From assembly GCA_938004065.1 (NCBI GenBank), contig CALKWM010000013.1:2457-66456 (forward strand): a DNA stretch of 64,000 bases, read 5' to 3'. Made by a program: the position numbers and the translations under genes. Origin of the DNA: an uncultured bacterium. Lineage in GTDB: Bacteria > Patescibacteriota > JAHJAL01. The notes beneath the pieces were generated by a model. That model ran no database searches and was not told where the DNA came from. It worked only from the letters and a program-made list of their open reading frames with translations. How positions within the stretch are numbered: the first letter of the stretch is position 1; each line of letters begins with the position of its first letter. Shown in pieces: positions 272 to 62,771 of this stretch.

Positions 272-558
272 TGAGTAAGAAATAAGAAGTAAGAAGTAAG
301 AAGTAAGAAATAAGAAACAAGAAACAAGAAACAAGAAAGTATCAAGGATCAATATCCAATATCCAATATTCAATATTCAATATGCAATAAGCAAGAAAGT
401 ATCAATATTCAATATTCAATATGCAATAAGCAAGAAGCAAGAAACTAGAAGCAAGAAACAAGAAGCAAGAAACAAGAAAGTATCAATATTCAATATTCAA
501 TATGCAATAAGCAAGAAGCAAGAAGCAAGACACAAGACACAAGACACAAGACACAAGA
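272..558. repeat. Heptamer-periodic simple-sequence repeat array, ~290 bp, immediately 5' of pyk.
   Basis: Tandem 7-mers AAGTAAG/AAATAAG x5, CAAGAAA x3 and CAAGACA x4. There is a ~40-bp higher-order unit AGTATCAATATTCAATATTCAATATGCAATAAGCAAGAA x3, also made of 7-mers. Confidence 0.9.
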
Positions 559-7848: not shown

Positions 7849-7871
7849 GAGATTGGATTAATAAGTAATAA

Positions 7872-7909
7872 GTATGCGCCCAAGGCGCACCAGATGACTG
7901 GAAAAGTAA
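7872..7909 (+). promoter_or_regulatory. Conserved 38-bp double-dyad element, copy 1 (GTATGCGCCCAAGGCGCACCAGATGACTGGAAAAGTAA); on the coding (minus) strand it ends 23 nt upstream of the rnj ATG.
   Basis: Exact 38-mer shared with copies at 37494 and 53515/53556. It contains the dyads TGCGCC-CAA-GGCGCA and CCAG-ATGA-CTGG. Confidence 0.6.
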
Positions 7910-7985
7910 TAAGTAAGAATTGTTAAATGGTCGGATAAAAAATTGTCATATTGCAATATCAAAATATTGTGAAGTCGAATATGAT

Positions 7986-14562: not shown

Positions 14563-14588
14563 GAGAAATCTTAAATCTCAAATTTCAA

Positions 14589-14622
14589 ATCCCAAACTTT
14601 TTGGATGTTTGGGATTTGTTTT
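14589..14622 (+). terminator. Rho-independent terminator of rpsT.
   Basis: ATCCCAAAC-tttttggat-GTTTGGGAT stem-loop followed by TTTGTTTT. Confidence 0.6.
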
Positions 14623-15747: not shown

Positions 15748-15821
15748 AGCCGTCCATCGGAATTGAACCGATAACCTATGGTTTACGATACCATTGCTCT
15801 ACCAAATTGAGCTAGGACGGC
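15748..15821 (-). tRNA. tRNA-Thr (anticodon CGT).
   Basis: The minus-strand sequence is GCCGTCC-TA-GCTC-AATTTGGTA-GAGC-A-ATGGT-ATCGTAA-ACCAT-AGGTT-ATCGG-TTCAATT-CCGAT-GGACGGC-T. It has a 7-bp acceptor stem, a GG D-loop and a TTCAATT T-loop. The anticodon loop is ATCGTAA, giving anticodon CGT (Thr). CCA is not encoded. Confidence 0.8.
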
Positions 15822-15831: not shown

Positions 15832-15869
15832 GTATGCGCCCTAGGCGCACCAGATGACTGGAAAAGTAA
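15832..15869 (+). promoter_or_regulatory. 38-bp double-dyad element, copy 2 (CCTAGG variant), ending 10 nt upstream of the mature tRNA-Thr 5' end.
   Basis: GTATGCGCCCTAGGCGCACCAGATGACTGGAAAAGTAA. A degenerate partial copy (GTATGCCCCTAGGGTGGAAAGTA) lies at about 15925. Confidence 0.55.
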
Positions 15870-15969
15870 AAAGTAATAAATAAGAAGGGGAGAGTAAAAA
15901 GTAATAAATAAGAAGCAAGAAGTATGCCCCTAGGGTGGAAAGTACCAATGTCCAATATCCAACGATTAA

Positions 15970-18789: not shown

Positions 18790-18930
18790 GGATAGGTGGT
18801 GAGTAAGAAGTAAGAAGTAAGAAATAAAAAGTAAGATGTTGATATTTGTGGCTGTTTATTTGGGGGAAAATGGGTGTTTGGTAGACTGGTTATTAATTCT
18901 ATTTTAACACGTAATTTTCGGTATATGATA

Positions 18931-20465: not shown

Positions 20466-21971
20466 ATGAAATTGTCAATTTTTTGTGAGGAATTTTCAGA
20501 TTTGAAGGCGGATGCGGTGGTGATTTTCAATGAAAAGGGACGGGTAGCTTTACGGGGAATGGATAATGAGGTAAATAAAAGTTTGGATGGTTTTTTGAGC
20601 GAAATTCTCGAATCCGGAGAGTTTTCCAGTTGCCAAGATCAATTTCATTATTTTTATAGTTTTGATAAGATTAAAAAAATTCCCCGAGTGGCAATGGCGG
20701 GATATAGTCTGGATGGAGAAAAAACATTGAATCCTTTGCGGTCGGCGGCGGCAGTGGCGGTCAAGAAATTACGCGAGGTGGGTTTGAAAAAAATTGCTTT
20801 GATTATGCCCAATGTCAGAAGTTGGGAAATGGCGGAAAGTACTCGAGCGATTGTGGAGGGGGTATTGTTGGGATTGTATCGTTTTGATAAATATTTGGAG
20901 AATAGAAAGAAAAACGAAATTTCCGAAATACTTTTGGTGGGAGAAACCAAAGATAAAAGGACGTTTGAAAAAGCGATATTGTTGGGAGAGATGGAGTCCA
21001 GTGGGGTGATGTTGTCGCGAGATGTGGGAAATGAACCGAGCAATGTTTTAACTCCTCGCGGATTTGCGGTGGTGGCGGAAAGAGTGATGAAAAATTTGAA
21101 AGTCGGTTGTCGGGTTTTGGATGAAGGGGAAATCAAGAAGCAAGGATTGGGATTGCTTTATGGCGTTGGCAAAGGTAGTGATGAACCGCCAAGGTTGGTG
21201 GTGGTAAACTATCATGCTGGGAAAAAATATCCGACAGTGGCGTTGGTGGGGAAAGGAATAACTTTTGATAGTGGCGGGACCAGTTTAAAAGTGGGTGATG
21301 CGGCCGGGCCGATGTTGTTTGATATGAAGAGAGATATGGCGGGTGCCGGTGCGGTTTTGGGAACTATGAGTGTGATTGCCAAGCTAAAACCAAAGTTAAA
21401 TGTGGTTGGTGTTTTGCCACTTGCGGAAAATATGCTGAGTGGCCGGGCGTATAAACCGGGTGATATATTGGTGAGTTATAGCGGTAAAACGGTGGAGGTT
21501 TTCAATACCGATGCGGAAGGAAGATTGGTGATGGCGGATGCGATGAGTTATGCTCAGGAAAACTATAAACCGGATTTTTTGATAGATATTGCAACTTTGA
21601 CGGGGGCGGTGTTGCGGGCGGCCGGACCAAGTTTGATCGGTTTGTTTGGTAATGATAATCGGTTTTTGGAGAGGGCTAGAAAGGCGGCGCTGATATCAGG
21701 AGAAGAGACAATGGATTTTCCTTTGTACGAAGGTTATCGTAGTCGAGTCAAGTCGCATTTTGCCGATGTAAAAAATCTAAGTTACAAAGGTTCGGGGGCG
21801 ATCAATAGTGCCTTGTTTTTGAATGAATTTGTTGAAGAGGGAGTGAAATGGGTGCATTTTGATATGGCAGCGGTGGGTACACAGGTTGGTGATGGAACTT
21901 ATCTAACCAGGGGTGCGACCGGTGCGGGAGTGAGATTGTTGACGCATTTACTGTTAGGGATGGCGAAATAA
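20466..21971 (+). CDS. pepA: Leucyl aminopeptidase (M17 family).
   Basis: NTDAEGRLVMADAMSYA signature and M17 C-terminal catalytic domain. A strong SD (AAGGAGG) precedes the ATG. Confidence 0.9.
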   Translation: MKLSIFCEEFSDLKADAVVIFNEKGRVALRGMDNEVNKSLDGFLSEILESGEFSSCQDQFHYFYSFDKIKKIPRVAMAGYSLDGEKTLNPLRSAAAVAVKKLREVGLKKIALIMPNVRSWEMAESTRAIVEGVLLGLYRFDKYLENRKKNEISEILLVGETKDKRTFEKAILLGEMESSGVMLSRDVGNEPSNVLTPRGFAVVAERVMKNLKVGCRVLDEGEIKKQGLGLLYGVGKGSDEPPRLVVVNYHAGKKYPTVALVGKGITFDSGGTSLKVGDAAGPMLFDMKRDMAGAGAVLGTMSVIAKLKPKLNVVGVLPLAENMLSGRAYKPGDILVSYSGKTVEVFNTDAEGRLVMADAMSYAQENYKPDFLIDIATLTGAVLRAAGPSLIGLFGNDNRFLERARKAALISGEETMDFPLYEGYRSRVKSHFADVKNLSYKGSGAINSALFLNEFVEEGVKWVHFDMAAVGTQVGDGTYLTRGATGAGVRLLTHLLLGMAK

Positions 21972-22074
21972 GAAGTAAGAAGTAAGAAGTAAGAGATGAA
22001 GGCCGGTTCTTATAGAGGGTCTGTGTGGAGAAAGTATTGTATAATGGAGTTATAATTATTAATAAAATTAAATA

Positions 22075-26789: not shown

Positions 26790-26838
26790 TAAGAAGTAAG
26801 AAATAAGAAGTAAGAAGTAAGAAATAAGAAGTAAAAAG
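26790..26838. repeat. AAGTAAG/AAATAAG heptamer array immediately 5' of glmS.
   Basis: AAGAAGTAAGAAATAAGAAGTAAGAAGTAAGAAATAAGAAGTAAAAAG. Confidence 0.85.
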
Positions 26839-28662: not shown

Positions 28663-29679
28663 TCAGCTCTGTTGGAGGAATTTGGCGGTTTTATAAACTG
28701 TGTGCCAAAAAGGGGAAATGGTTTTTTCCATATGGCCGGCGGTCGAGACTTCGATACCGCCAAAACCATTTTTGAAACGGGTGATACCGGCCCAGGGGTG
28801 ATTGGGTTTGGAACCGGGAGGAGCGATGCCACCAAAATCATAGAATCGGCATTTGTAATCGATAGCGTCTTGGATAGCTTGCCATTGCAGGGCGTAGGTT
28901 GGCATCAGATTGCGGTAGGTGTTGGATGAAGCCCCGTGTAAATAGGTAGCGATATGGCCAAAGTATGAGACCATAATGCTGGCAATTATTTTGTCTTTAT
29001 ACTGAGCGTGATAGAGAAATACTATGTTTTTCGGACCGAGGGTTTTGAGGATGTTTTGGTAGTGTCGTTTGTTATGAGGGCGGAAAGTATTGCGATCACA
29101 AGTTTTTAGTAGTAGTTCGAAAAAATAATCGACATCTTTGACATCAGATGTTTTGATGATTTTGATATGTTTTTTGTGGGCCAGACGAATATTGTATCTG
29201 GTTTTTTGTTTAAAATTTTTGAAAATTTCGTCTTTGGATTGCAAAAGATTTAATATTAGAGTGTCTTTTGGTTGAGTATAACGATTAGTGGCTACAAAAC
29301 CGTTTTCAGCCAAGCTATGATAGAGAGTGTGGCAGGTTTGATAAAATGGTTCGAAACGAATGAAAATAGTATTGGTTAGATCAATGAATTTTTTTATCTC
29401 ATGTAGTAATTTTTGTGTTGTGGCTTGGATTTCGGGAGGAGTGAGTTCTTTGCTAATCACCGGACCATAGGGGGCGTAGAAATAATTTTTGTTCATAGTT
29501 AAATCGTGTTTGATCAGGAGAACGGAAGATGTTATTTTGCCTTTTTCGGAAGTATATACAATATAGGTTTTTTGTTCTCCCAATTTTTCGATATTAAGCC
29601 AATATCCCGTTTGAGTAAGTGCCCGGGGGTTATTGTGAGCGATAAAATCATTAATTGTTTCCTTGGTGATGTGAGTCAT
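28663..29679 (-). CDS. FemAB-family aminoacyltransferase (FemX-like peptidoglycan interpeptide bridge formation).
   Basis: 338 aa. The C-terminal YLHGASSNTYRNLMPTYALQWQAIQDAIDYKCRFYDFGGI segment matches the FemAB family. Confidence 0.65.
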   Translation of the reverse strand: MTHITKETINDFIAHNNPRALTQTGYWLNIEKLGEQKTYIVYTSEKGKITSSVLLIKHDLTMNKNYFYAPYGPVISKELTPPEIQATTQKLLHEIKKFIDLTNTIFIRFEPFYQTCHTLYHSLAENGFVATNRYTQPKDTLILNLLQSKDEIFKNFKQKTRYNIRLAHKKHIKIIKTSDVKDVDYFFELLLKTCDRNTFRPHNKRHYQNILKTLGPKNIVFLYHAQYKDKIIASIMVSYFGHIATYLHGASSNTYRNLMPTYALQWQAIQDAIDYKCRFYDFGGIAPPGSKPNHPWAGITRFKNGFGGIEVSTAGHMEKTISPFWHTVYKTAKFLQQS

Positions 29680-29897
29680 TTTTTTTGGATGGTCCTTAAT
29701 TTTTGCTTTCTAATGATATTATATAAGTATTGTGGGCCAATATCCAATATGTAAATTGGGAGCGGTATAATGGATAATGAGTAATTAATAATTTACAATT
29801 AGTAATTGGTAGAGAAAAAATTGTTTGCACCCTAGGCGATCTTGCATACGCGGGACGAGACATGCTTATAATGTATAAATTGTATTAAGTTATTGTT

Positions 29898-30989
29898 ATG
29901 GTGTTGATATTGGGAATTGAAACTAGTTGCGATGAGACGGGAATTGCCATCGTGGAAGATGGGAGTAGGATTGTGTCCGAAAAATTAAAAAGCTCGGTTG
30001 ATTTGCAGGCGGAATACGGGGGGGTGGTACCGGAATTGGCTAGTCGGGTACATGTGGAGTATGTAAATATTTTGATAAAAGAGGCATTGGATGAGGCCGG
30101 TTTAACCATGACGGAAATTGATGCGGTGGCGGTGGCCAATGGTCCGGGATTGGTGGGAGCTTTGTTAGTGGGAACAATGGTGGCCAAGACGATCGGATTG
30201 GTGGAGAAAAAAAAGTTGATAGCGGTAAATCATCTGGAAGGACATATTTTCTCATCTTTTTTATCATTAGAAAAAAAAGATGAAAAGTTACAAGTATCAA
30301 GAATCAAGGATCAAGTTCTAAGTGAAGAAAAAAACAAGAAAATGATTTTTCCGATGGTGGTTTTGATAGTTAGTGGAGGACATACGGAATTGGTGTTGAT
30401 GGAAGATTATGGAGTGTATAAAATCTTGGGTAGTACGATTGATGATGCGGCCGGCGAAGCGTTTGACAAAGCGGCGAAAATTTTGGGATTGCCATATCCG
30501 GGAGGGCCGAGCATTGCACAGAGTGCTGTGCAAGTATCAAGTATCAAGGATCAAGGATCAAGTAATGAGGAGATAAATTTACCGAGGCCGATGTTGAATT
30601 CGAAAGATTATAATTTTTCTTTTTCGGGGTTGAAAACGGCGCTGTTATACAAAATTACTAATGATAAATTACAAATTACTAATGAAAAGATAAGAAATAT
30701 GTTGGCGTGGGAATTTCAGGAGGCGGTGTGCGATGTATTGGCCAAAAAAACCAAGCGGGCGATGGAAGATTTGGGAGTGAAAAGATTGGCGGTGGTGGGC
30801 GGGGTGGCGGCCAATCAAAGATTGCGGGAGAAATTGCATGAGACAATTGATGATGAGATTGCGATTCCGGAGTTTAAATATTGTACTGACAATGGGGTAA
30901 AAATTGCCACAGCAGGGTATTATAAGTATAGAGTTGGTAATTTTATCGATTGGCAGGATTTGGAGGTAAAGAGTAATTGGAGTTTGTAA
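29898..30989 (+). CDS. tsaD: tRNA N6-adenosine threonylcarbamoyltransferase TsaD (Kae1/YgjD), carrying two in-frame heptamer-repeat insertions.
   Basis: MVLILGIETSCDETGIAIV, HLEGHIFS, SGGHTEL and GVAANQRLRE motifs. The inserted segments encode EKLQVSRIKDQVLSEE and VQVSSIKDQGSS and are written in CAAGTAT/CAAGGAT heptamers. Confidence 0.9.
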   Translation: MVLILGIETSCDETGIAIVEDGSRIVSEKLKSSVDLQAEYGGVVPELASRVHVEYVNILIKEALDEAGLTMTEIDAVAVANGPGLVGALLVGTMVAKTIGLVEKKKLIAVNHLEGHIFSSFLSLEKKDEKLQVSRIKDQVLSEEKNKKMIFPMVVLIVSGGHTELVLMEDYGVYKILGSTIDDAAGEAFDKAAKILGLPYPGGPSIAQSAVQVSSIKDQGSSNEEINLPRPMLNSKDYNFSFSGLKTALLYKITNDKLQITNEKIRNMLAWEFQEAVCDVLAKKTKRAMEDLGVKRLAVVGGVAANQRLREKLHETIDDEIAIPEFKYCTDNGVKIATAGYYKYRVGNFIDWQDLEVKSNWSL

Positions 30990-31209: not shown

Positions 31210-33924
31210 ATGGACGATGATAAAAACATATCAATGGACAAGGCGTATGAGTCAAAAAAATTTGAAAAAGATATTTATCAAATGTGGGAAGAGGGCGGAT
31301 TTTTTGAAGCCAAGGTAGATAAAAATAGAAAACCTTATGTGATATCAATGCCACCGCCAAATGCTACCGGAGTGTTGCATCTGGGACATGTGGTATTTAT
31401 CTCAGTATCTGATTCGATAGTTCGGTATCAGCGGATGAAAGGAAAAAATGTTTTATGGTTGCCGGGAACTGATCATGCGGCGATTGCGACGCAAACAAAA
31501 GTTGAAAAGATAGTAGCCAAGCAAGAAGGAAAAACGAGACATGATTATGGTAGAGAAAAATTTGTGGAAAAAGTGAAAGATTTTGTCGAGAATTCCAGGA
31601 GCACTATTCGTGAACAACTGAGGAGAACCGGTGCCAGTTGCGACTGGAAGCATGAGGCCTATACTTTCTCGGAAGAATTGTCGACTGCGGTAAATACGGC
31701 ATTTGAAAAGATGTATCATGATGGTTTGATTTATCGAGGAAATCGAATTGTAAATTGGTGTCCGAGATGTCATTCCACATTGGCTGATGATGAGATAGAA
31801 TACAAAGAACAAAAAGCGGTGTTGTACACATTTAGATATGCATCGGATTTTCCCTTTGAGATAGCAACTACCCGTCCGGAAACGAAACTCGGGGATACGG
31901 CGGTGGCGGTTAATCCTGATGATGTTCGTTATCAAAAATATATCGGTCAAGAATTTGAAGTTGATTTTTGTGGACAAAAATTAAGACTAAAAGTGATTGC
32001 CGATCTGGAAGTTGATATGGATTTTGGAACTGGTGCTTTGGGTGTTACTCCGGCGCATAGTTATGTCGATTTTGATATGGCGCAAAAAAACAATTTGCCG
32101 GTGATCAAGGTGATTGATGAAGATGGCAAAATGAATGAAAATGCGGGTGAATTTGCCGGTATGACTGTTTTGGAAGCGAGAGACAAGGTGGTGGAATGTT
32201 TGAAAGAAAGTGGTTTAATGATAAGTCAAGTGGAAATTGATAATAATTTGTCTGTTTGTTACCGGTGCGAAACGTCGATTGAACCGCTGACGAGCGAGCA
32301 GTGGTTTGTCGATGTTAACAAAAAAATTACCGGATGGAAAACAGACCGGATCAAAGGGTTGGTGGAGGGAGAGAAGTATTCTTTGAAAGATGTCTCGAGG
32401 ATGGTGGTAAAATCAAAACAAATCAGATTGTTGCCGGATAGATTTGAAAAAGTGTATTTCGGTTGGATGGACAATTTGCGGGACTGGTGTGTTTCCAGAC
32501 AGATTTGGTGGGGACACCGTATTCCTGTTTTTTATCGAAAACTTAAATCAACTAGCGAGTATCAACTAGAGAGCATCAAGGAAAATGATATTTATGTCGG
32601 GACAAATCCTTCCGGGGAGGGGTGGGTGCAAGATGAGGATACATTGGATACCTGGTTTTCTTCCGGTCTATGGACTTTTTCTTCACTGGGCTGGCCAAAA
32701 CAAACACCGGATTTGAAGTATTTTCATCCGACGGATTTGATGGTAACCGGTCGGGAAATTATCTTTCAATGGGTGGCCAGGATGATTTTGATGTCAACTT
32801 ATTTGGTGGGTGAAATTCCGTTTCGAGATGTTTATCTGACTGGTATTTTGTATGACAAAGATGGGAACAAGATGAGTAAATCGCTGGGAAATGCAATTGA
32901 TCCTTTGGAGATGATTGATCAGTATGGCACTGATGCTTTGAGGTTGTCGGTGATCGGAGGCATTGCTCCCGGGGTTGATTTCAGATTTCACCATGAGAAA
33001 ATTGTCGGGCAGAGAAATTTTGTCAATAAATTGTGGAATGTAAGTCGGTTTATTATCGCCAATTTGGACGCAAGTGTTGGCAGAGAAAAAATTGTTAGGA
33101 AAAATATCGAAGAAATCGATTTGCGAGATGAAGACAAATGGATTTTGTCGAGACTCAGTAAAGTTGCAAAAAGTGTATCCAAATATTTGGATGAATACAA
33201 ATTGAGTTTGGCGATAGAGAGTCTGCATGAATTTATCTGGAGTGATCTGGCTGATTGGTATGTGGAGATGGTAAAAGGTGATTTAAATAGTGAAAATAAA
33301 CAGCGGAAAATTGATGTGCAAAAAATTTTGAGTTTTGTTTTGACTAACACTTTAAAATTGATGCATCCGTTTGCACCGTTTGTGACGGAAGTTATCTGGA
33401 ATAATTTATCAAAAGATGGCTGGGGTAAGTTGATTGTGGCAACTTGGCCGGATGATTTGGATTTTGTCGATGACGTGGCGGAAGAGAAAATAAAGAATAT
33501 TCAAGAAATGGTGGTGGGGGTGAGAAACTTAATTGCGGATTTTGGGATGGCAAATGAAAAAAATATGAAAGTATTTTTGAAATTCGGTACCAATGTTGAT
33601 GCCGAGATAGTCGGTAACCAGATTGTTAAATTGGTTAAAAATATTTCAGAATATGAGGTTGTTGACGAGATAGGTGATGAATTGGTAAGTGGAATATATA
33701 AAATCGGGTCGGCAGGGTTGGAAATAAGTCAGGAGGTAAAAGAAGCACAGAGAAAGAGGGTTCTGGAAGAGGTGGAAAAATTAACCAATTATGCACAGAT
33801 GTTGGGGAAAAAATTGGCCAATGAAAATTATGTCAAAAACGCTCCTGGCGAAGTGGTGGAGAAAGATCGGAAAACCTTGGCGGAAATTGAGGAGAAGCTG
33901 GGGGAATTAATAAGTAATAAGTAA
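31210..33924 (+). CDS. valS: Valine--tRNA ligase.
   Basis: MPPPNATGVLHLGH (HIGH) and KMSKS motifs, an editing domain, and a C-terminal coiled coil; 904 aa. Confidence 0.9.
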   Translation: MDDDKNISMDKAYESKKFEKDIYQMWEEGGFFEAKVDKNRKPYVISMPPPNATGVLHLGHVVFISVSDSIVRYQRMKGKNVLWLPGTDHAAIATQTKVEKIVAKQEGKTRHDYGREKFVEKVKDFVENSRSTIREQLRRTGASCDWKHEAYTFSEELSTAVNTAFEKMYHDGLIYRGNRIVNWCPRCHSTLADDEIEYKEQKAVLYTFRYASDFPFEIATTRPETKLGDTAVAVNPDDVRYQKYIGQEFEVDFCGQKLRLKVIADLEVDMDFGTGALGVTPAHSYVDFDMAQKNNLPVIKVIDEDGKMNENAGEFAGMTVLEARDKVVECLKESGLMISQVEIDNNLSVCYRCETSIEPLTSEQWFVDVNKKITGWKTDRIKGLVEGEKYSLKDVSRMVVKSKQIRLLPDRFEKVYFGWMDNLRDWCVSRQIWWGHRIPVFYRKLKSTSEYQLESIKENDIYVGTNPSGEGWVQDEDTLDTWFSSGLWTFSSLGWPKQTPDLKYFHPTDLMVTGREIIFQWVARMILMSTYLVGEIPFRDVYLTGILYDKDGNKMSKSLGNAIDPLEMIDQYGTDALRLSVIGGIAPGVDFRFHHEKIVGQRNFVNKLWNVSRFIIANLDASVGREKIVRKNIEEIDLRDEDKWILSRLSKVAKSVSKYLDEYKLSLAIESLHEFIWSDLADWYVEMVKGDLNSENKQRKIDVQKILSFVLTNTLKLMHPFAPFVTEVIWNNLSKDGWGKLIVATWPDDLDFVDDVAEEKIKNIQEMVVGVRNLIADFGMANEKNMKVFLKFGTNVDAEIVGNQIVKLVKNISEYEVVDEIGDELVSGIYKIGSAGLEISQEVKEAQRKRVLEEVEKLTNYAQMLGKKLANENYVKNAPGEVVEKDRKTLAEIEEKLGELISNK

Positions 33925-34612: not shown

Positions 34613-35533
34613 TTGAATAAAATTGTCAAAAATTTGTTAATGGGGTTGTTGATATTCGTACTGGTTGTGGCAGGCGGTTTGCTGGGGTGGTATTATTCCA
34701 AATCATGGCGGGGGCAAAAATCAGCTCTATATCTCGAGAAATCGGAGCAATATATCGAACAAAAAAGTAGTAATGCTTTGTGGGAATTGGAGAAGGCGTA
34801 TTTGATGGGGATGAATTATGGTGATTATCAAATAAAAAAGGCCTTGGCTCTACTAAAGTTAAATGATGAACGAGCAATCGCACAAGCCAAATTGACGATC
34901 GACAGAGGGTGGGTTAGTGATGATTTGTATTTTTGGTATGGCAAAAGGTTATTTGAAATTGGAGATTATGTAAATGCGGAAAAGCAGTTTTTGAAGATTT
35001 CGGATGATTTGGACGAAAGTAATATCGATGAGTATTATGAGTATATGGCATTTTTGGCCGGTAGCCATGGGAATTTTTCTCAAGCGGTGGAGTTTTTGGA
35101 TAAGTCGTTGGTAAGTGAAAATGAGTTGGCAAATAATATGAAGATATTTTTGGATGCGGTAAATGATAATTGGACAGAGATTGATAAGCTGGAGCTTGCG
35201 GATGAGATGAAGAAAAATTTGGATGAACTGGAAAAAATGAATGGGGATTTGTATGTTTTAAAGTTGGCGGACGTGGCTAATGATATGGGTTTGTCGAGCT
35301 GGTGCCGGGCTTTGATCGATGGTCAACAGTGGAAGGGGGTAAACAATAAATATATCTATCTGGTTTATGCTCGATCGTATTTGGTAGAAAATGATTGTGG
35401 AAATGCATGGGAATATCTAAAAAACGTGGAGGAAGACGATAGTATCGATGAAGATTTGCATATCTTGTTGGCGCAAACGTATAAATGTTTGGGAAATGTG
35501 GAGTGGATGGAATGGGAAGAGGGTAAGCAATAA
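34613..35533 (+). CDS. Hypothetical N-terminally membrane-anchored protein (helical/TPR-like); the gene ends inside a CAATAAG array.
   Basis: N-terminal TM LLMGLLIFVLVVAGGLLGWYY. The stop codon lies inside the heptamer array (..EGKQ*). Confidence 0.45.
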   Translation: MNKIVKNLLMGLLIFVLVVAGGLLGWYYSKSWRGQKSALYLEKSEQYIEQKSSNALWELEKAYLMGMNYGDYQIKKALALLKLNDERAIAQAKLTIDRGWVSDDLYFWYGKRLFEIGDYVNAEKQFLKISDDLDESNIDEYYEYMAFLAGSHGNFSQAVEFLDKSLVSENELANNMKIFLDAVNDNWTEIDKLELADEMKKNLDELEKMNGDLYVLKLADVANDMGLSSWCRALIDGQQWKGVNNKYIYLVYARSYLVENDCGNAWEYLKNVEEDDSIDEDLHILLAQTYKCLGNVEWMEWEEGKQ

Positions 35534-35583
35534 GCAATAAGCAATAAGCAATAAGCAATAAGCAATAAGCAATAAGCAATAAG
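35523..35583. repeat. (CAATAAG)n heptamer array, ~8.5 units.
   Basis: Perfect tandem CAATAAG units in the convergent intergenic space between the 34613 gene and the PilB-like gene. Confidence 0.95.
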
Positions 35584-37457: not shown

Positions 37458-37493
37458 GGTGAGAAGTAAGAAATAAGAAGTAAGAAGTAAGAA

Positions 37494-37531
37494 GTATGCG
37501 CCCAAGGCGCACCAGATGACTGGAAAAGTAA
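37494..37531 (+). promoter_or_regulatory. 38-bp double-dyad element, copy 3, flanked on both sides by AAGTAAG repeats, 36 nt upstream of the PilB-like ATG.
   Basis: Exact 38-mer GTATGCGCCCAAGGCGCACCAGATGACTGGAAAAGTAA. Confidence 0.6.
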
Positions 37532-37716
37532 AAAGTAAAAAGTAAGAAATGAAATCTATTATTAGAAAATTGTTGGGTTGTTATTTATTTTTTTTAAAAT
37601 CGTATTATTGTATCACATATGGTAAAAATATGCAAGGTTTTTATGATTGGGAAAATCTGTACTCGAAGAGTATTTATGAGAGTGTGTTTTGGTTATTTTG
37701 TAACTAAAAATACTTA

Positions 37717-38333: not shown

Positions 38334-41300
38334 TTAGAAGCCAATATGGACAGCATCTTCGCAGTTTGTTAGAAAAGGGTTTTGTCGGTCTTCGCATTTT
38401 TTGACAAAGATATTCAATACATCAAATCGATCTTCATACCAAACAAAATCGAATTTTTCTTTGGATTTGGGGGCGATTTTATCTTGGATAGTGGAGGCGA
38501 AATCGGAAAATATCTGTAGTGGGTAGTAATTTTTGATATATTCCCTAGGATTGTTCGTCATTTCCGGGTTGTTGATCGGGAATCCGTTTTCGTCAGCTGC
38601 TTCAACAATTTCTCCATTTTCGTTTTCCATGATGATATTGTATTTTAGGTGAGCTGTTTTATTGCGATCAAATGTTAAAACCATGTCCAGGAAGTGGATG
38701 ATGTTGTCTTGGGCGATTTTTTTCTTGCATTTGGTAAACACAAAGCCGGCAACGGGGTTATTGACCCAACTGCCAACGAAGCCAATGCCGATATTGGCTA
38801 CATTGAATCCGAGACCCATGTCAAAACTGGCCCCCAGATTTGTTAGTATTGATACATCTGCCTTCAGGAATTCTTTGATTAGATATTGGCTAGCAAACTG
38901 CATGATGGCTTCAGTTGGAAATTCACCATTTAGAATGCTCATGATAGAATTACTCATCAAACCACCCAGGGGACCATCAAGTTTGGAAAGCAGGTGTTTA
39001 TCTAAAAATTTCATCGACGTTTGTTTGATAAATCCGTCAATGTCGCCGTTCATCAGATTTTGGATACCGCCAATATCGAAATAATCGCCAAGTTCGCTTG
39101 ATTCAAGCCATTCGGTTATTTTGTCAGCGACTTTGGGTGAGGATAGGATGGAGTTGGCGATAGCTTGGGGATCGCCGCTAAGGGCGGCGTTGACGATACC
39201 GCCATAATCGCTCATGAAGCTTTGGAATTCTTCTTTGCCGATAGCATCTTGGAAAAAGTTGGCGGTCATGATGGTGCTAACCGCTTTTTGGGGGGTGATA
39301 TCGCCACTGGCGACGAGCCCATAGATACTGGAAATATCACCGAGTGTGCCGGGATCGATGTCTTGCAGTACGTTTTTTTGAATAAAATCCGATTGCAATA
39401 ATTTGGGAATATTTTTTGGGTCAGGTGGTACTCCGAGGGTGTTGGTAAGCTCCTGAACTACGGCTAGTTTTTCCAAGCCCGATTCGGATGTTATCTTGTT
39501 GGCCATGATTTCCATAACTGTGTCGGATGCTTTTTGAGGTGAAAAGTTTTGAACCAAATCTAGTAGTTGCTCCGGTCCGGTACCGATGGCGTCTCTGATT
39601 TCGTTGTTGATGTTAAATTTATCTTGAATGAGAGGAATATCTTCCAGGAGAGCAAAATAGTTGCCACTTTCGATGTCGGAATAGATTTTTAATGGATCAA
39701 CCCCATTGATAGCGATATTGCCATCCGGTCCGATGTTCCAGGTGGAATTATTTGAAAGATTATCAAAAACTCCGTTGTCTTTCAAAAAGCCGGTCATGGA
39801 TTTGATGCCAGTTTCGATGTCGCCGGTTTGCCATGATTTGACGATACCCATGGCGTTAGTCAGTTGAGTTAATTTGTTTTCCAATATTGCCTGGTCGCTA
39901 ACATCGGTAAACATACTGGCGATGTCAATGCCGGTCATACTGGCGGCGATAACTGTAACACCGAGGTTGGATAGATTTTCTTTGGCTTGATTGTCGCTTT
40001 TGCCGATACTATTTAAAGTGTTATAGATTGTTCCACTGCCTCCTAAAAAGGCGTTGTTGTCAAAGGTGGCATAAGTTGAGTCAGGAAGTTGGTAGCTGAA
40101 TTGATGTTTTTCGAGGAATGCGGTTTTTAGCGGGTCTTGGGAGAGAATGTTTTGAATTTGAGAGAAGCCGGAAGTGGTATTGGGTAGAGTCGGAGTGATG
40201 CGATTGTAAATATTTGATGGAAGATTTTGATTTATACCCGGAATTTGTTGGTTGTTGGAAGTAATCGGAGTGATAACAATTGGTTTTTCTTGGGCGTATT
40301 TGATGATATTGGTGGTGGTGCTAAGTAATTTGAAATTACCAGTTTGACTATGATAGTTGTTGTTGCCGCGGATTCCCGGGAGGGCGATTTCGGCGAGATC
40401 TACTTTGGGATAAGCGTAGTAAATCTCTCCGGGTTCAAAGTATTCGGAGTAAGTAGCGTTGATGGGGGATGGAAATGAAGTGCCACCGTAAGAGCTAAAA
40501 TAATCAGGATTTGTAGTGTTTTGGTCAGGAGAAAGTAGAGCGTTGTTTTTTTGTTCAAAGGTGGTAGAGTGGACAATTTCCAGTGAGTTTAAATCAACGT
40601 TCAAGGAACGTAGTACTCCTTGAAATTGAGTATCTGATGCGCCATTTTGGCCGGGTTTGGTGGTGGTATCAATGTAATCAATTTGTGATAACTCATCTTT
40701 TTTTACTCTTTCGGAAAAGGAAATTTTGATTGGCGCTACCAGATAACTGATTTCATTTTTGGCTTTGGCCGAGTCGCTGTTGGGATCGGAGATGGATTGG
40801 TCAATGGTGGATACTATGCGGTCATGAAACTGAGTGATGGGTTCGGAATTACCAAATTTTGTGGAATAATCTTGAGAAAGTTTTTGTAGTTCGGGGGAAT
40901 ATGCGTATGGATTGTAACCATAGCCATATGGTGAATAGTTGTTGAATGCGGGATTGGTGGATTCCGGTAAGTTATTGACAATTTGAATGTAGTCTTGCAG
41001 GTAGGCCAGTTTTTCAATGTCGGTTTTATTTAAATCGATGCCAAATTTATCCAGTTTGATGGAATTGGAAATGGCGGCCATCATGAGTTGCCCAGCTTGA
41101 GCGTTGTCGCCCGAGTAGGCCGGATTGAGACCGTAGTCAACCAGTAATTCCAGAGACTCGGGGGTGAAGTTGATGTTTTTTAAAGCGGCTTGCTCAAAAT
41201 CGATTTTGTTAAGCAGAGTGTTTTTGAAAGTAACAAATGGCATTGAGGTGGGGTTGTCAACGAAGTCTTTGATGAATTGCGCGTCTTCAGTATTGATAGC

Positions 41301-44012
41301 GAATATTTTTGACAAATCCTCGGTTTCCATGAGTTGCATGGCGGAGTTTAGCGAGAAGTCTTGGCCTTGTGAAATTGCGGTGGTTAACGCTTGATTGATG
41401 CGTTGATTGTCAGTTACGTCAGACAATAGACTGCTGGTTAAAGACATGGCGGTGTTTTTGGGGTTTTTGATATCAAAGATGAAATTTGTCGGCAGGCCTT
41501 CAATTTTGGCCAAGCCATGTTGTCCCAATTTATTGGCGATGCCGATAAACCCTTCACCGGAAAAACTATCCAAATCAAGGATCCCGTCCGGCCATCCCAA
41601 TACATTTGAATTCAGTTCTTTTAGGCCCAAATTGGCGAAAGCCAGCCCCATGGCTTCGGGGTTGTCGCCATTTTGGATAGCGATGTTCATGGCTTCCTGC
41701 AGTTTGGGAGGTAGGTTGAGATTGGGGGTAAAATTTAAAGCTGATAGGGCGGCGTCTTTGAAATCACCGGACATCATAGCGGAGATGATGGGTGTGAAAG
41801 AGCCAAATTCCAGTCCAAGTTGCTCGTCGAGGTAGTTGCCGGTAATGGATGTGATTAGTGCTTCGGGGTTGGGATTTAACCAATTGACGCTAGAAGAAAA
41901 ACCATCGGGTAGTCCCAGTTTGCCAAATACTTTTTCATCAAGCCACTGGTTGCCCATTTCGCTCATGAAGTTTTCAAATCCACCTTGGGCCAGTTTGGCG
42001 ACATCGAAATTTTTAAAACCGGAATTAAATAACTGTTCGATGGCTCCTTGGGCAAGACCTTTGAGCATATTGGTAATACTGAAACCATTTTCCGGATCAA
42101 ATGGTAGCGCTTGGTCGAGAGCGGCACCGGCCAGATCGGAGGCGATTGAACCGTAGTCTTCGTTTTGCCATTTGACTTTCACTCCCATGGTATTGGGATT
42201 GGCGGAGTCGAGTATGGGAGGACAACATGGTTGGCAAAGAGTTCCCCAGAAGATAGGTGCGGTGCAAAGGAGCATGCATATCGCTGAATTGCGATAGATA
42301 TTCCAAAAAGGAACATTGTTTTCGGTAGCGGCACCGAGACTGTATTGAGATGCGGCCATGGGACCGGCAACTGTCATCAGGTAGGCGCTAATTAATGAAT
42401 CTACAACAGCGGTGATGGATTTGCAAGAGACTATATCGCCACAGGCGGAACAGTCAGTGGATTCGTTGTATAATCCGATTTCGGAGATATCAACCGCTTT
42501 GAGGTCATAGTGAGGATTGACAACTTCCAATTCGTCTTCACCTATTTCATCGGAAGCGTATGGTGCGTTTAAACCCAGCCAGATTTTGAGGTGGGCTCGG
42601 TCTTTGTAGGGAACACCGAGATTGTCAATGTTGCCGGTCATGACATCAAAAACAAAATAAGTGGCACTGACTATTCCGCAGAGGTTGGCGGGGTTATCAC
42701 ATTTTTCCGGACTGTTTTCGATGTTTTTGCCACAGGCGGTTTTGATGGCCCCCGGGGTAGTGGCGTCTTGGATGACTTTGTCAGCTAGGTACCTTTCGTA
42801 AGTTTCGCCGTTCATTTCCATAGTTTGGAAGACGTGGTAAAGCAGGTAGTAGATTCTTTCGTCAACCTGAATGCCTTGTTTGTAGTAGCTGTTGAATTCG
42901 GCGATGGTTTGGGGCAACAATACTTTTACTTCCGCCGGGTTTTCAAATTCAAGTGGGGGTGGAAAAAATTCTTGGGTAGGCGGGTTGCCACTTTTTGGTT
43001 CAGGAATGTTATTGATTTCATTTTGAAGTTGTTGAAATTCCGGGCTGTTGGTATCCGGATTTTCAAAATATGGAGCTATTGAATCGTTGTTGATCGTTTG
43101 AGGATTGTTTTCGGGAGGATTTAGTTCGGGCGCGGGTGGAGTGCTGAGAGAGGCATAGGTTTTGGTTATGCCCAGATATTGGGCGAGTTTATTGTTGCCA
43201 TTGGTCGAAGTGGTAGATGGTTCGGTAGTAAAATTGTTTTGCAAAATTTGTCGTGAAGTATCGGTATTGAAAGCGATATTTATGTCGGGGTTATCAACTC
43301 GAGCGTCGTTGTTTTGCTGGGGATCTGAACCTTTGAGAGCGTTGGGGCCGGGAGGGCAGGCGATTAGTCCTTCGCCGATAGCTTTGGAAATAAATTCTTT
43401 GTGGGAAAGCATATCACCATTTATTTCGGCGCCAATTTCGGCTTTGATCATTAGGCATTCGAATACTTGGTTGAAATTGAAAAGCTCGGCCAGATTTTGT
43501 GATTGCTCCAAATAGTGGTCGTAGATATGTTGAGCCCAGGCGTCTTCATTGCTATTGTAATCATTTTTACTGAGATTTTTGATCTCATCAACTTTGGCTT
43601 TGGCTTTGGTAAAAATTTCGTTATTTAAATCGATAACTCTTTGAGTTTCGATCAAGGTATCAACTTTTTCGATTTCATCGTAAACGACAGTATTTAAGTT
43701 TTCTTCCAAAGTTTGGATTTCTTTGGCCCAGTCGCGGAATTTGTCGGTAATGTTGGGAGTTTCGATTTCGTCTTGGATGATATCCAGACTGTTGATGATG
43801 GTGTCGTTGGCAGAGAATTGATCGATAGTAGTGTTCTGATTGATTTCTTCCAAAAAAGGGTTAAGGTTAGGATCAATGTCATGGGAATTTGGTACCGGCG
43901 GGGTTGCGTGAACCGGTGTAAATTTCAGTTGGGGATTGGCATATGGCGAAATGGCGGCGATGAAGCAGACGAGAATCAGTTTGATGATGATTTTTTTGTT
44001 GATTGGATTCAT
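38334..44012 (-). CDS. Giant secreted/surface protein of 1892 aa with a signal peptide, Pro/Asn-rich low-complexity stretches and Cys-rich regions; function unknown.
   Basis: Uninterrupted 5.7-kb ORF. The N-terminus MNPINKKIIIKLILVCFIAAISPYA is signal-like. No catalytic motif was recognised. Confidence 0.6.
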   Translation of the reverse strand: MNPINKKIIIKLILVCFIAAISPYANPQLKFTPVHATPPVPNSHDIDPNLNPFLEEINQNTTIDQFSANDTIINSLDIIQDEIETPNITDKFRDWAKEIQTLEENLNTVVYDEIEKVDTLIETQRVIDLNNEIFTKAKAKVDEIKNLSKNDYNSNEDAWAQHIYDHYLEQSQNLAELFNFNQVFECLMIKAEIGAEINGDMLSHKEFISKAIGEGLIACPPGPNALKGSDPQQNNDARVDNPDINIAFNTDTSRQILQNNFTTEPSTTSTNGNNKLAQYLGITKTYASLSTPPAPELNPPENNPQTINNDSIAPYFENPDTNSPEFQQLQNEINNIPEPKSGNPPTQEFFPPPLEFENPAEVKVLLPQTIAEFNSYYKQGIQVDERIYYLLYHVFQTMEMNGETYERYLADKVIQDATTPGAIKTACGKNIENSPEKCDNPANLCGIVSATYFVFDVMTGNIDNLGVPYKDRAHLKIWLGLNAPYASDEIGEDELEVVNPHYDLKAVDISEIGLYNESTDCSACGDIVSCKSITAVVDSLISAYLMTVAGPMAASQYSLGAATENNVPFWNIYRNSAICMLLCTAPIFWGTLCQPCCPPILDSANPNTMGVKVKWQNEDYGSIASDLAGAALDQALPFDPENGFSITNMLKGLAQGAIEQLFNSGFKNFDVAKLAQGGFENFMSEMGNQWLDEKVFGKLGLPDGFSSSVNWLNPNPEALITSITGNYLDEQLGLEFGSFTPIISAMMSGDFKDAALSALNFTPNLNLPPKLQEAMNIAIQNGDNPEAMGLAFANLGLKELNSNVLGWPDGILDLDSFSGEGFIGIANKLGQHGLAKIEGLPTNFIFDIKNPKNTAMSLTSSLLSDVTDNQRINQALTTAISQGQDFSLNSAMQLMETEDLSKIFAINTEDAQFIKDFVDNPTSMPFVTFKNTLLNKIDFEQAALKNINFTPESLELLVDYGLNPAYSGDNAQAGQLMMAAISNSIKLDKFGIDLNKTDIEKLAYLQDYIQIVNNLPESTNPAFNNYSPYGYGYNPYAYSPELQKLSQDYSTKFGNSEPITQFHDRIVSTIDQSISDPNSDSAKAKNEISYLVAPIKISFSERVKKDELSQIDYIDTTTKPGQNGASDTQFQGVLRSLNVDLNSLEIVHSTTFEQKNNALLSPDQNTTNPDYFSSYGGTSFPSPINATYSEYFEPGEIYYAYPKVDLAEIALPGIRGNNNYHSQTGNFKLLSTTTNIIKYAQEKPIVITPITSNNQQIPGINQNLPSNIYNRITPTLPNTTSGFSQIQNILSQDPLKTAFLEKHQFSYQLPDSTYATFDNNAFLGGSGTIYNTLNSIGKSDNQAKENLSNLGVTVIAASMTGIDIASMFTDVSDQAILENKLTQLTNAMGIVKSWQTGDIETGIKSMTGFLKDNGVFDNLSNNSTWNIGPDGNIAINGVDPLKIYSDIESGNYFALLEDIPLIQDKFNINNEIRDAIGTGPEQLLDLVQNFSPQKASDTVMEIMANKITSESGLEKLAVVQELTNTLGVPPDPKNIPKLLQSDFIQKNVLQDIDPGTLGDISSIYGLVASGDITPQKAVSTIMTANFFQDAIGKEEFQSFMSDYGGIVNAALSGDPQAIANSILSSPKVADKITEWLESSELGDYFDIGGIQNLMNGDIDGFIKQTSMKFLDKHLLSKLDGPLGGLMSNSIMSILNGEFPTEAIMQFASQYLIKEFLKADVSILTNLGASFDMGLGFNVANIGIGFVGSWVNNPVAGFVFTKCKKKIAQDNIIHFLDMVLTFDRNKTAHLKYNIIMENENGEIVEAADENGFPINNPEMTNNPREYIKNYYPLQIFSDFASTIQDKIAPKSKEKFDFVWYEDRFDVLNIFVKKCEDRQNPFLTNCEDAVHIGF

Positions 44013-53485: not shown

Positions 53486-53514
53486 GGTAAGAAATAAGAA
53501 GTAAGAAATAAGAA

Positions 53515-53593
53515 GTATGCGCCCAAGGCGCACCAGATGACTGGAAAAGTAATAAGTATGCGCCCAAGGCGCACCAGATGACTGGAAAAGTAA
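53515..53593 (+). promoter_or_regulatory. Two tandem copies of the 38-bp double-dyad element (53515-53552 and 53556-53593), 29 nt upstream of the lysin ATG, preceded by AAATAAG/AAGTAAG repeats.
   Basis: GTATGCGCCCAAGGCGCACCAGATGACTGGAAAAGTAA x2, separated by TAA. Confidence 0.6.
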
Positions 53594-53795
53594 AAGAAAA
53601 AGAAAAATTTAAGGTATATATTAAAAAGAAAAATTAGAACATGAAAAGTTCTAATTTTATTATACGGGGGAGGAGTAAACTTAACAAACTTATCAATTAT
53701 CGAACAAGATAAATAAAGTATCAAGTATAAAGTGAGGTGTTGCTTCGCAACATATTAATTAGATATATAGTTTTTTAAATATTTTTTTCTGGATT

Positions 53796-53810: not shown

Positions 53811-53900
53811 CAGGTAAGGCGGATCGAGGATGACATTTTTGTTTTGTTGATTGTTTTAAAAAGTTTGGAATGGTTTGAATGTGTTTGAAAAAAGTTTGAT

Positions 53901-55800: not shown

Positions 55801-55838
55801 CAAAGTATCAAGTAACAAGTATCAAGTAACAAGTATTT
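55801..55838. repeat. (CAAGTAT CAAGTAA)x2-3 heptamer array just 5' of the VirB4-like gene.
   Basis: CAAAGTATCAAGTAACAAGTATCAAGTAACAAGTATTT. Confidence 0.8.
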
Positions 55839-57375: not shown

Positions 57376-57382
57376 GGTTTGT

Positions 57383-60766: not shown

Positions 60767-61095
60767 TTAAAAATAATATATTTTAATAAATAATAAGTAA
60801 TAAGCAATATGCAATAAGCAATATGCAAGAAGCAAGAAGTAATATGCAATATGCAAGAAACAAGAAGCAAGAAGCAAGAAGCAAGAAGTAAGAAAGTATC
60901 AAGGATCAATATTCAATATCCAATATCCAATAAGCAATATGCAAGAAACAATAAGCAAGAGACAAGAAGCAAGAAGCAAGAAGCAAGAAAGTATCAGGGG
61001 TCAATATCCAATATCCAATATCCAAGAAGCAATATGCAATAAGCAAGAAACAAGAAGTATGCGTCCAAGGTGCACCAGATGACTGGAGAAGCAAG
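60767..61095. repeat. Heptamer-periodic SSR spacer between pilin paralogs 2 and 3, containing a diverged copy of the 38-bp element at 61057-61094.
   Basis: Units AATAAGC, AATATGC, AAGAAGC (x3 runs), ATATCCA and AAGAAAC. The element variant is GTATGCGTCCAAGGTGCACCAGATGACTGGAGAAGCAA. Confidence 0.85.
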
Positions 61096-61429: not shown

Positions 61430-61611
61430 AATAGATGGTAAAAAAAAGTATCAAAGATAAATAAGCAAGAAATAAGAATCAAGAAGAAAGAAGCAAGAAT
61501 CTGGTAAAAACAATAATTTTAAAAAAGAAGAATTTACAAAGAAAAATTAGTTGAATATTGCATATTGCGTATTGATTATTGCATATTGTATATTGCATAT
61601 TGCATATTTTG
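61430..61611. repeat. SSR spacer between pilin paralogs 3 and 4.
   Basis: AAATAAGCAAGAAATAAGAATCAAGAAGAAAGAAGCAAGAA, then TATTGCATATTGCGTATTGATTATTGCATATTGTATATTGCATATTGCATATT, which is the inverse orientation of the AATATGCAATA units. Confidence 0.8.
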
Positions 61612-61920: not shown

Positions 61921-62111
61921 GTTCTTATTTTGAAGATAATATTTAATAAGCAATAAGCAATATGCAAGAAAGTATCAAGGACCAATATCCAATATCCAAG
62001 AAGCAAGAAACAAGAAGCAAAAAACAAGAAAGTATCAAGGATCAATATCCAATATCAAAGAAGCAATATGCAATATGCAATATTCAATTTCTAGGTGTTT
62101 TTAATATTGTT
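61921..62111. repeat. SSR spacer between pilin paralogs 4 and 5.
   Basis: AATAAGCAATAAGCAATATGCAAGAAAGTATCAAGGACCAATATCCAATATCCAAGAAGCAAGAAACAAGAAGCAAAAAACAAGAAAGTATCAAGGATCAATATCCAATATCAAAGAAGCAATATGCAATATGCAATATTCAA. Confidence 0.85.
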
Positions 62112-62492: not shown

Positions 62493-62771
62493 CGAAGTAA
62501 TAAGTGAAAAGTAAGAAGTAATAAGTAATATGCAATATCCAATAAGCAATATGCAAGAAGCAATAAGCAATAAGCAATAAGCAAGAAGCAAGAAAGTATC
62601 AATAACCAATATTCAATATCCAATAAGCAAGAAGCAAGAAGCAAGAAAGTATCAAGGATCAATATCCAATATCCAATAAGCAATATGCAAGAAAGTATCA
62701 AGGACCAATGTCCAGTATCCGATAAGCAATATGCAATAAAGTATCAAGGATCAACATCCAATTTTTTAAGA
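62493..62771. repeat. SSR spacer between pilin paralogs 5 and 6.
   Basis: AAGTAAT, AATATGC, AATAAGC x3, AAGAAGC, the AGTATCAAGGATCAATATCCAATATCCAATAAGCAATATGC unit, and diverged copies toward 62760. Confidence 0.85.

Follow-up and report, generated by a model that had tools for sequence, protein, structure and literature searches.

Simple sequence repeats (SSRs) built of seven-nucleotide units are described, in two papers that cite Mrazek (2007), as over-represented among the long SSRs of prokaryotes, intergenic and variable between close relatives; polymerase slippage is proposed there as their cause, and no function is established (PMC4679880, PMC4692102). Tandemly repeated heptanucleotides (STRR) have also been cited from the cyanobacterium Calothrix PCC 7601 (in PMC4692102). 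In marine Beggiatoaceae, TAACTGA direct repeats lie upstream of start codons, and binding of S1 or Csp has been proposed for them (MacGregor 2015, PMC4679880), while an (ATCTTTC)n tract in the 5' untranslated region (5'UTR) of hmw1A/hmw2A in Haemophilus influenzae forms a long hairpin of about 10 repeats with a G-rich arm, which is cleaved by RNase III (PMC12721329). Here we analyse arrays of tandem heptamers in a 64-kb stretch of contig CALKWM010000013.1 (64,000 nucleotides, hereafter the window), together with a 9-kb extension, from an uncultured bacterium that the similarity of its GlmS and PolA proteins places among the Patescibacteria (candidate phyla radiation, CPR).

The arrays of the window fall within the general definition of heptameric SSRs and outside the definitions of the specific named systems. 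They consist of tandem 7-nt units beyond chance expectation, they are mainly non-coding, and their copy number and units vary among close relatives. The account that we favour, with a probability of roughly 60%, is that they are slippage-generated heptanucleotide microsatellites, strand-asymmetric in origin or in survival, which expand up to the coding boundary and are tolerated in untranslated RNA and in protein loops; dedicated translation signals they probably are not. With the class that comprises STRR, the GGGAATC repeats of Xanthomonas and the GGGGAYT repeats of Nostoc they share strict 7-nt tandem units, several unit sequences per genome, a strongly intergenic location and wide variation of length and sequence between close relatives. 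They differ from the known members in their reduced-genome Patescibacteria host, their near-complete strand polarity in the window, their abutment on gene ends, their higher-order modules of 46-95 nt and an embedded hairpin element; moreover, because their units are A-rich (YAAKNNN), unlike the G-rich units of the known heptameric SSRs, they are not quadruplex-forming. Identity with the cyanobacterial STRR was rejected, the organism being a Patescibacteria metagenome-assembled genome (MAG) and the units YAAKNNN; STRR units are CCCCAGT-type heptamers of heterocystous cyanobacteria, and the report from Calothrix is said to date from 1990. In the literature searched we found no description of such arrays in CPR/Patescibacteria.

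Arrays were detected with Tandem Repeats Finder (TRF) and with our own lag-k run detector, and the latter found 23 arrays of period 7 in the window, one of period 6 and none of periods 4, 5 or 8-12. Period-7 arrays were recovered by both at every site listed in the first-pass annotation, with four large ones within 60784-62762, and TRF gave several further sites (Table 1). A single plus-strand pattern, YAAKNNN, fits all array units (among them TAAGAAG, TAAGAAA, CAAGAAA, CAAGAAG, CAATATC/T/G, CAATAAG, CAAGACA, CAAGTAT, CAAGGAT and TAAGCAA), and the in-phase motif (YAAKNNN)x3+YAAK has 102 matches, 98 on the plus strand and 4 on the minus strand, against 0.05 expected from shuffles. Of 129 in-phase triplets, 121 are intergenic, 8 lie in plus-strand coding sequences and none in minus-strand coding sequences; the share of bases that lie in arrays is 12.8% for intergenic and 0.15% for coding DNA. 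Autocorrelation, which had been proposed as a check, peaks in the intergenic DNA of the window at lags 7 (0.413), 14 (0.401), 21 (0.380) and 28 (0.366), other lags giving roughly 0.28-0.35, and coding DNA has no peak at lag 7 (0.264). The long arrays are composed of modules, GTAT-CAAGGAT-(CAATATC)n-(CAATATT)n-CAATATG-CAATAAG-(CAAGAAR)n, with a 4-nt phase shift at their joins ('AAGTAT'). The module junction GAAAGTATCAAGGAYCAATATYC occurs 12 times in the window at three mismatches or fewer, six times exactly and always on the plus strand. Higher-order modules measure 46-95 nt across arrays, and for the pyk array TRF gives 46, 74 and 81 nt in place of the 40-bp higher-order repeat first described. 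The idea of a common generating mechanism, also put forward at first, agrees well with these data: there is one YAAKNNN family, it grows and shrinks by whole units, and period 7 is the commonest period in unrelated genomes too.

Table 1. Array sites of the window, with the strand that carries the A/G-rich sequence.
Feature	Position	Strand	Context and content
pyk composite array	276..558	+	between promoter-like region and pyk ATG (269-267); three modules of the form given in the text; (TAAGAAR)n beside the ATG, (CAAGACA)4.7 at the far end
RNase J upstream	7859..7918	+	11 nt upstream of start 7848; short TAATAAG units around hairpin element 7876-7901
polA 3' spacer	15836..15960	+	between polA stop and tRNA-Thr (15748-15821, minus); hairpin element 15836-15861, AAAAGTA-type array 15862-15924, module remnant 15938-15960
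(AGTAAGA)5	18802..18836	+	13 nt upstream of polA start 18789
(TAAGAAG)4	21965..21994	+	contains stop codon of plus-strand M17 aminopeptidase gene 20466-21971; upstream of promoter-like TATAAT of next plus-strand gene
(TAAGAAR)7	26790..26838	+	fills 72-nt spacer from Mur ligase stop 26858 to glmS start 26785
Degenerate TAATNNN heptamers	29768..29807	+	divergent spacer between minus-strand gene 28663-29679 and tsaD
Two in-frame arrays	30291-30322, 30531-30564	+	in tsaD coding sequence (plus strand); CAAGTAT/CAAGGAT units
(TAATAAG)2.4	33908..33924	+	contains stop codon of valyl-tRNA synthetase (plus strand)
Perfect (TAAGCAA)8.6	35524..35583	+	contains stop codon of plus-strand gene 34640-35533; in convergent spacer before PilB-like gene
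(AGAAGTA)5, hairpin element 37498-37523, (AAAAGTA)3	37462..37545	+	upstream of PilB-like start 37457
(TAAGAAR)4 (period-7 array 53487-53517)	53487..53607 (site)	+	directly beside multidomain lysin start 53485; followed by two tandem hairpin elements 53519-53544 and 53560-53585, 41-nt unit
(AAGTATC/AAGTAAC)2.4	55803..55836	+	52 nt upstream of VirB4/TraG-like ATPase start 55751
274-nt composite array and degenerate hairpin element 61061-61086	60784..61086	+	between pilins 60391-60756 and 61121-61429
AAGCAAG-type array	61442..61499	+	upstream of pilin 61121-61429
(CAATATG)n, read on minus strand	61551..61608	-	only array in opposite orientation
Composite array, two modules	61937..62088	+	upstream of pilin 61612-61920
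Composite array, 46/53-nt higher-order modules	62494..62762	+	upstream of pilin 62112-62492
Hairpin element AAGTATGCGCCCAAGGCGCACCAGATGACTGGAAAAGTAA, six copies	7876-7901, 15836-15861, 37498-37523, 53519-53544, 53560-53585, 61061-61086	+	all copies on plus strand

The purine-rich strand lies on the plus strand in 22 of the 23 arrays, as had been noted for the arrays at minus-strand genes; overlooked at first were arrays on the stop codons of plus-strand genes and within the tsaD coding sequence, so that arrays are not limited to the leaders of minus-strand genes. At 11 minus-strand genes an array ends within 2-52 nt of the start codon, and in three plus-strand genes (M17 peptidase, ValRS and 34640-35533), marginally also in a fourth, the stop codon lies inside an array; one array precedes a tRNA gene (tRNA-Thr) and two are inside the plus-strand tsaD. 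Arrays are also found upstream of plus-strand genes, where the plus orientation is kept and the transcript would be A/G-rich. The window has a GC content of 39% and a strong positive GC skew on its plus strand throughout, so that the A-rich strand of an array is almost always the G-rich strand of the chromosome. Among nine plus-strand genes none has a pyrimidine-sense array at its start, whereas arrays that served genes should give about 2.6 such cases (P about 0.05); together with a GC skew that stays positive even at plus-strand genes, this indicates that array polarity follows the DNA strand and not the transcript. The 5' side of an array starts hard against a gene end, which is a start codon for minus-strand genes and a stop codon for plus-strand genes, and in 13 of 16 array-bearing spacers the gap between the 5' end of the A-rich strand and the left-hand gene is smaller than that between its 3' end and the right-hand gene (p = 0.02).

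The skew itself ranges from +0.1 to +0.48 along the plus strand of the window, and about 80% of the genes, including polA, recA, pyk, glmS, PNPase and ftsK, are on the C-rich strand; by the usual skew rule, most window genes would be assigned to the lagging strand. Four syntenic relatives found via PolA (L208-L211) have the same pattern of skew and gene strand down to 66% PolA identity, with a strong skew of +0.27 to +0.36 in common with the window.

Comparison between close relatives shows that the arrays change quickly. In a related strain whose flanks are 95.7-98.6% identical, the pyk spacer measures 438 nt between fixed anchors, against 277 nt in the window, a length difference that the first-pass annotation had set beforehand as a check on its proposal. 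The two versions have the same three-module grammar and differ by 23 heptamers and in some unit types. This strain comparison covers the pyk spacer, look-ups with the pilin region having returned just the identical NCBI contig, and all array copy numbers derive from assembled short reads. For the related strain, two independent ENA assemblies agree exactly over 471 nt spanning the pyk array region. Among the relatives, the density of period-7 arrays is 4.8 per 10 kb in the window (PolA 100%), 1.3 in L208 (77%), 1.9 in L209 (75%), and zero in L211 (67%) and L210 (66%). The spacer between tRNA-Thr and holA has 16 repeat-free nucleotides in L210, 26 nt with a single 'cttact' ('aaacttact') in the window, and 53 nt of (CTTCTTA)n, of the TAAGAAG type, running up to the holA ATG in L209. 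Conversely, the TAAGAAG-type array upstream of polA in the window has no counterpart in these relatives, L209 having only a degenerate A/T-rich period-7 stretch there. The arrays of L209 keep the same DNA polarity beside genes of either orientation. That relatives carry arrays at differing spacers, or none, fits lineage-specific expansion from short seeds and not conserved cis-regulatory elements.

The arrays of tsaD illustrate what can be tolerated inside a gene. They encode LQVSRIKDQV... and VQVSSIKDQ, loop insertions of 16 aa and 4-7 aa in an essential, conserved gene, which are absent from the TsaD of E. coli and Salmonella and from a 65%-identical orthologue in a syntenic relative. Since their lengths are multiples of 21 nt they stay in frame, and CAAGTAT-type units are free of stop codons in the plus sense whereas their complement contains one, which fits the eight matches in plus-strand coding sequences and their absence from minus-strand ones.

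Heptamers resembling those of the window occur far beyond it. An exact scan of JGI metagenomes for (YAAGAAR)x3+YAAG found at least 120 contigs, and 80 loci examined among the matches listed (L087-L166) range in GC content from 27 to 70%; several of them have multiple different heptamer units side by side, in both orientations within a few kb. AGAAGAC, GGTAATG, ATTCGTA and others are such neighbouring units, and some of the arrays reach great length, as in L121 with more than 700 nt of AAGATGY/AAGAAGY. The analysis of open reading frame (ORF) context in these 80 loci was discarded, as TAAG units end ORFs by construction and high-GC contigs yield spurious ORFs. An exact scan of the JGI metagenomes for the module junction GAAAGTATCAAGGAYCAATATYC returned no match. 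Among mostly unrelated genome loci totalling 1.17 Mb, period 7 is the commonest of the periods 5-11, with 9 arrays, of which 2 belong to this organism, where each of the other periods has 0-4; the unrelated loci carry other unit sequences.

These observations would be explained if arrays begin as short motifs of untranslated spacers (TAAG in a stop-codon context, for instance, or one CTTACT close to a start codon), which slipped-strand mispairing would amplify unit by unit; units would then mutate and be re-amplified, producing one YAAKNNN family and its higher-order modules. The slippage mechanism, a connection with the direction of replication and the placement in 5'UTRs are our inferences. 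Arrays are retained only at sites where they do no harm, namely 5' leaders, 3' trailers, intercistronic spacers and surface loops of TsaD (stop-free multiples of 21 nt). At minus-strand genes, the transcript would thereby gain a leader rich in pyrimidines and nearly devoid of structure, continuing up to the AUG. Such a leader would be compatible with initiation independent of a Shine-Dalgarno (SD) sequence; the arrays do not appear to be required for it, and they are not conserved gene by gene.

Promoters predicted from sequence place the arrays, most likely, in 5' leaders or, in the pilin cluster and before glmS, in intercistronic spacers. For pyk, where the array is borne out and the start codon is corrected to 269-267, a TATAAT -10 box lies at 636-631 (minus strand), upstream of the array and just past the terminator hairpin of the preceding gene, within a 170-nt stretch that is nearly identical between strains. 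For the PilB-like gene, an extended -10 box (TGATACAAT, 37615-37607, minus strand) is likewise upstream of the array, and the sequence TACAATAATACGAT is common to it and to the strong TTGACA-18-TACAAT promoter of the TrbL gene. A generic sigma-70 scan of the window was uninformative overall, with 57 candidates against 56 expected. The idea that the arrays are stacks of overlapping promoters was dropped, no convincing promoters having been found inside the pilin arrays. Assuming a canonical anti-SD (the window contains no 16S rRNA gene), a recognisable SD precedes 8 of 45 starts, namely 1 of the 11 with arrays and 7 of the 34 without. It is true, as first noted, that array genes mostly lack an SD, yet this is not a trait of the arrays, since most array-less genes (27 of 34) also have none and SD-poor initiation appears general in the window. 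Many starts are preceded by C/A-rich sequence, e.g. CACC-ATG or AAAC-ATG. What does set array genes apart is that positions -30 to -1 are 72% pyrimidine, against 48% in other genes. The pyk leader folds no better than its shuffles (minimum free energy (MFE) z = -0.11) and its last 90 nt or so before the AUG are unpaired, while the PilB leader folds only at a small hairpin element.

This hairpin element, AAGTATGCGCCCAAGGCGCACCAGATGACTGGAAAAGTAA, is a 40-nt sequence that occurs at six sites embedded among heptamers and folds as two adjacent small hairpins. Five copies are 15-75 nt upstream of minus-strand genes, namely those for RNase J, tRNA-Thr, the PilB-like protein and the lysin (two copies). 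The sixth lies 35 nt beyond the stop of one pilin gene and about 300 nt ahead of the next. Two of the copies form a tandem duplication with a 41-nt unit, and in the diverged copy at 61061 the G-U pairs are kept only if it is read on the plus strand. The element may serve for processing, for attenuation or as an operator. It resembles REP/BIME-like elements, with which it alone was compared, in being a short, conserved, GC-rich palindromic unit that is intergenic, dispersed and sometimes tandem; unlike them, its six copies have all the same orientation, stand upstream of genes, are flanked by heptamers and have no match in Rfam. Searches of Rfam at gathering and at permissive thresholds returned no family on the heptamer arrays or on the hairpin element. 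H-DNA or triplex formation and A-tract curvature were set aside, as the purine tracts are broken every 7 nt and 7 nt is not the helical repeat.

Several of our observations weigh against a purely mutational origin. Start regions have less structure in array genes (mean MFE -0.97 kcal/mol) than in the remaining genes (-2.44 kcal/mol; p = 0.014), as would be expected if the leader matters; arrays sit precisely against the start codons of 11 genes; and the conserved double-hairpin element, in one orientation at six heptamer-embedded sites, hints at an organised leader and not at junk. That a very small, gene-dense genome devotes 13% of its spacer DNA to arrays, the longest of which reach 280-440 nt, points either to strong mutational pressure or to an advantage of some kind. 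The strand polarity, moreover, is drawn from the 64-kb window, its 9-kb extension and one relative, and because the GC skew has the same sign throughout this DNA, the effect of strand and that of the prevailing gene direction are incompletely separated.

The arrays could instead be functional 5'-UTR elements, (CUUCUUA)n or (UUUCUUG)n serving as landing pads for an OB-fold protein, either S1 or a cold-shock-domain protein with a site of about 7 nt, so that leaders would replace the SD and enhance or regulate translation. CspB binds T-rich heptamers, and the distance from array to AUG is 2-14 nt at pyk, polA, glmS, PilB, lysin and a pilin. The last 30 nt ahead of these starts are pyrimidine-rich and almost unstructured, as an S1-type enhancer just upstream of a start codon should be. 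The same idea has been put forward for the TAACTGA repeats (PMC4679880), which resemble the arrays in being heptamers a few nucleotides from the start codons of unrelated genes, essential ones included, in a setting where canonical SDs are rare, and in having occasional in-frame copies inside ORFs. They differ in having another unit in 2-6 copies, against up to about 40 here, and in being oriented forward relative to the gene, whereas the present arrays are fixed on the DNA strand and also occur on stop codons; a TAACTGA-type identity was rejected on the unit and the orientation. Several features speak against the dedicated U-rich S1 enhancer that had been proposed at first: the sense of an array's sequence is not tied to the gene, arrays near plus-strand genes reading A/G-rich in the transcript and none of the nine plus-strand genes having a pyrimidine-sense array at its start; arrays precede a tRNA gene, sit on stop codons and run inside tsaD; they are relocated or absent at orthologous genes; and the lack of an SD is general. 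We therefore consider landing pads unlikely. The other early proposal, that the arrays act as contingency loci or rheostats in which unit number tunes or switches the downstream gene, especially the T4SS (type IV secretion system) pilins, the PilB-like ATPase and the lysin, seems improbable to us. It can draw on the 23-heptamer difference between strains, on the presence of the largest arrays in the pilin cluster, on the inverted array pair that flanks one pilin gene, and on the precedent of hmw1A, in which a pyrimidine-rich heptamer SSR in the 5'UTR sets the expression level (PMC12721329). Like that SSR, the arrays would lie between promoter and start codon and be transcribed in the leader, and their copy number differs between isolates; hmw, however, is one adhesin locus in a pathogen, compared with about 20 spacers here, mostly beside housekeeping genes (pyk, polA, glmS, RNase J, tRNA-Thr). 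The hmw mechanism also needs a long hairpin of repeats with a purine-rich arm, which is not predicted here, and the long-hairpin model of the hmw kind was rejected on the folding of the pyk and PilB leaders. Nor do the arrays have the placement of classical contingency loci, in a reading frame or between -35 and -10 boxes: they are downstream of the predicted -10 of recognisable promoters and outside ORFs, or are 21-nt multiples in tsaD, where they would be lethal and not adaptive switches. A graded rheostat effect on expression is still conceivable.

A different kind of explanation would place the signal in the DNA, with arrays as polar elements tied to replication, either footprints of a one-way process along the chromosome or signals for it; examples would be slippage at gene ends caused by replication-transcription encounters, or sites for a strand-reading protein. 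We give it little credence, although it would account directly for the finding of 98 of the 102 in-phase matches on the G-rich strand irrespective of how the adjacent gene is oriented, for the 5' ends that abut the left-hand gene in 13 of 16 spacers, and for the same polarity relative to GC skew in L209. In 67 metagenome loci the purine-rich strand is on the G-rich strand in 42 cases and not in 25 (p = 0.019), a slight bias in the same direction. Other organisms, however, carry both orientations within a few kb, relatives with equally strong skew have no arrays, there is no opposite-skew region in the DNA examined to show a flip, and no candidate protein is known. Finally, mis-joins or collapsed repeats made by the assembler would be an extremely improbable source. 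Public short-read contigs do end inside arrays, and a single assembly may therefore misstate the number of copies; yet two independent assemblies share the 471-nt array region, an NCBI MAG (GCA_036848155.1) is 100% identical to the window across six arrays, and about 20 sites have a consistent grammar and sensible flanks. Among such contig ends are those of Logan contigs L001 and L002 inside the pyk array and that of MAG contig DAIUKQ010000005.1 (contig 5), which begins inside the TAAGCAA array at window position 35530.

The nearest GTDB representatives by GlmS are just 61-62% identical, among them a Moraniibacteriota MAG, and most source-named PolA matches are labelled as Patescibacteria-group taxa. 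Pfam checks cover pyk (a PK barrel domain in gene 3-269), glmS, the Mur ligase, RNase J, holA, the T4SS pilins, TsaD, ValRS, the M17 peptidase, a TMEM43-like protein, the lysin, the VirB4/TraG-like ATPase, the PilB-like ATPase and PolA. The region 49841-64000, with the extension L086, is a conjugation-type T4SS cluster that includes the multidomain lysin (phage tail lysozyme, C39-like, GH3 and M23 domains), the VirB4/TraG-like ATPase, TraC-like, PrgI-like and TrbL-like genes and seven tandem T4SS-pilin paralogues. An array had been claimed before every pilin; four of the seven pilin genes have one, and those starting at 60366 and 63200 and the one running off the window end do not. In this cluster, the array 61551-61608 recurs in inverted form at 62043-62104, with 96% complementarity over 24 nt and 77% over 62 nt, and the pair flanks the pilin gene 61612-61920, which the two arrays could enclose by pairing in the transcript; they could also support DNA inversion. 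First-start ORF calling runs genes into arrays and creates N-terminal extensions such as LLTSYFL....

Other repetitive sequences of the window are of a different kind. An AAATCTC period-7 run at 14566-14596 was excluded from the YAAKNNN family, as it is the left arm of the hairpin that terminates rpsT; the terminator-like hairpin as a whole spans 14566-14620 after rpsT (AAATCCCAAAC...GTTTGGGATTT), and in L004, a relative, an AATCTCA array of similar kind stands before its own inverted complement. The minus-strand gene 44477-45877 encodes long (Asp/Glu-Lys)n and (Ala-Gly)n low-complexity tracts, which correspond to 6-, 21- and 42-nt DNA tandem repeats at 45147-45670; after these tracts the protein has a transmembrane segment and a globular domain at its C terminus. 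Between it and the region of the PilB-like gene, 38334-44012 (minus strand) is an ORF of 1892 aa with no Pfam match.

It is tempting to go further and to suppose that the arrays record a directional, replication-linked process that generates repeats, or that a protein reading a 7-nt single-strand register uses the arrays and the hairpin element. The A-rich sequence on the G-rich strand, the start of arrays at the gene end of one side and the location of about 80% of genes of the syntenic region on the C-rich strand point that way, and we still regard the supposition as a long shot. If it were true, and polarity flipped at the origin and terminus, the arrays would naturally reveal the way in which heptamer microsatellites originate, with slippage at replication-transcription encounters or a 7-nt polymerase footprint as candidate causes.

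What distinguishes these arrays from other heptameric SSRs is their density in a minimal genome, their near-complete strand polarity, their abutment on gene ends and the hairpin element embedded in them. They are an example of very dense, polar and fast-changing arrays in a minimal-genome CPR bacterium with little room for spare DNA, and they can be compared cleanly with a strain that is nearly identical and with syntenic relatives, of which some have arrays and others none. They also explain why public assemblies break at these spacers and why ORF calls extend into them. For the biology of this organism, our results argue that the arrays are primarily mutational products and that initiation without an SD is here independent of them.

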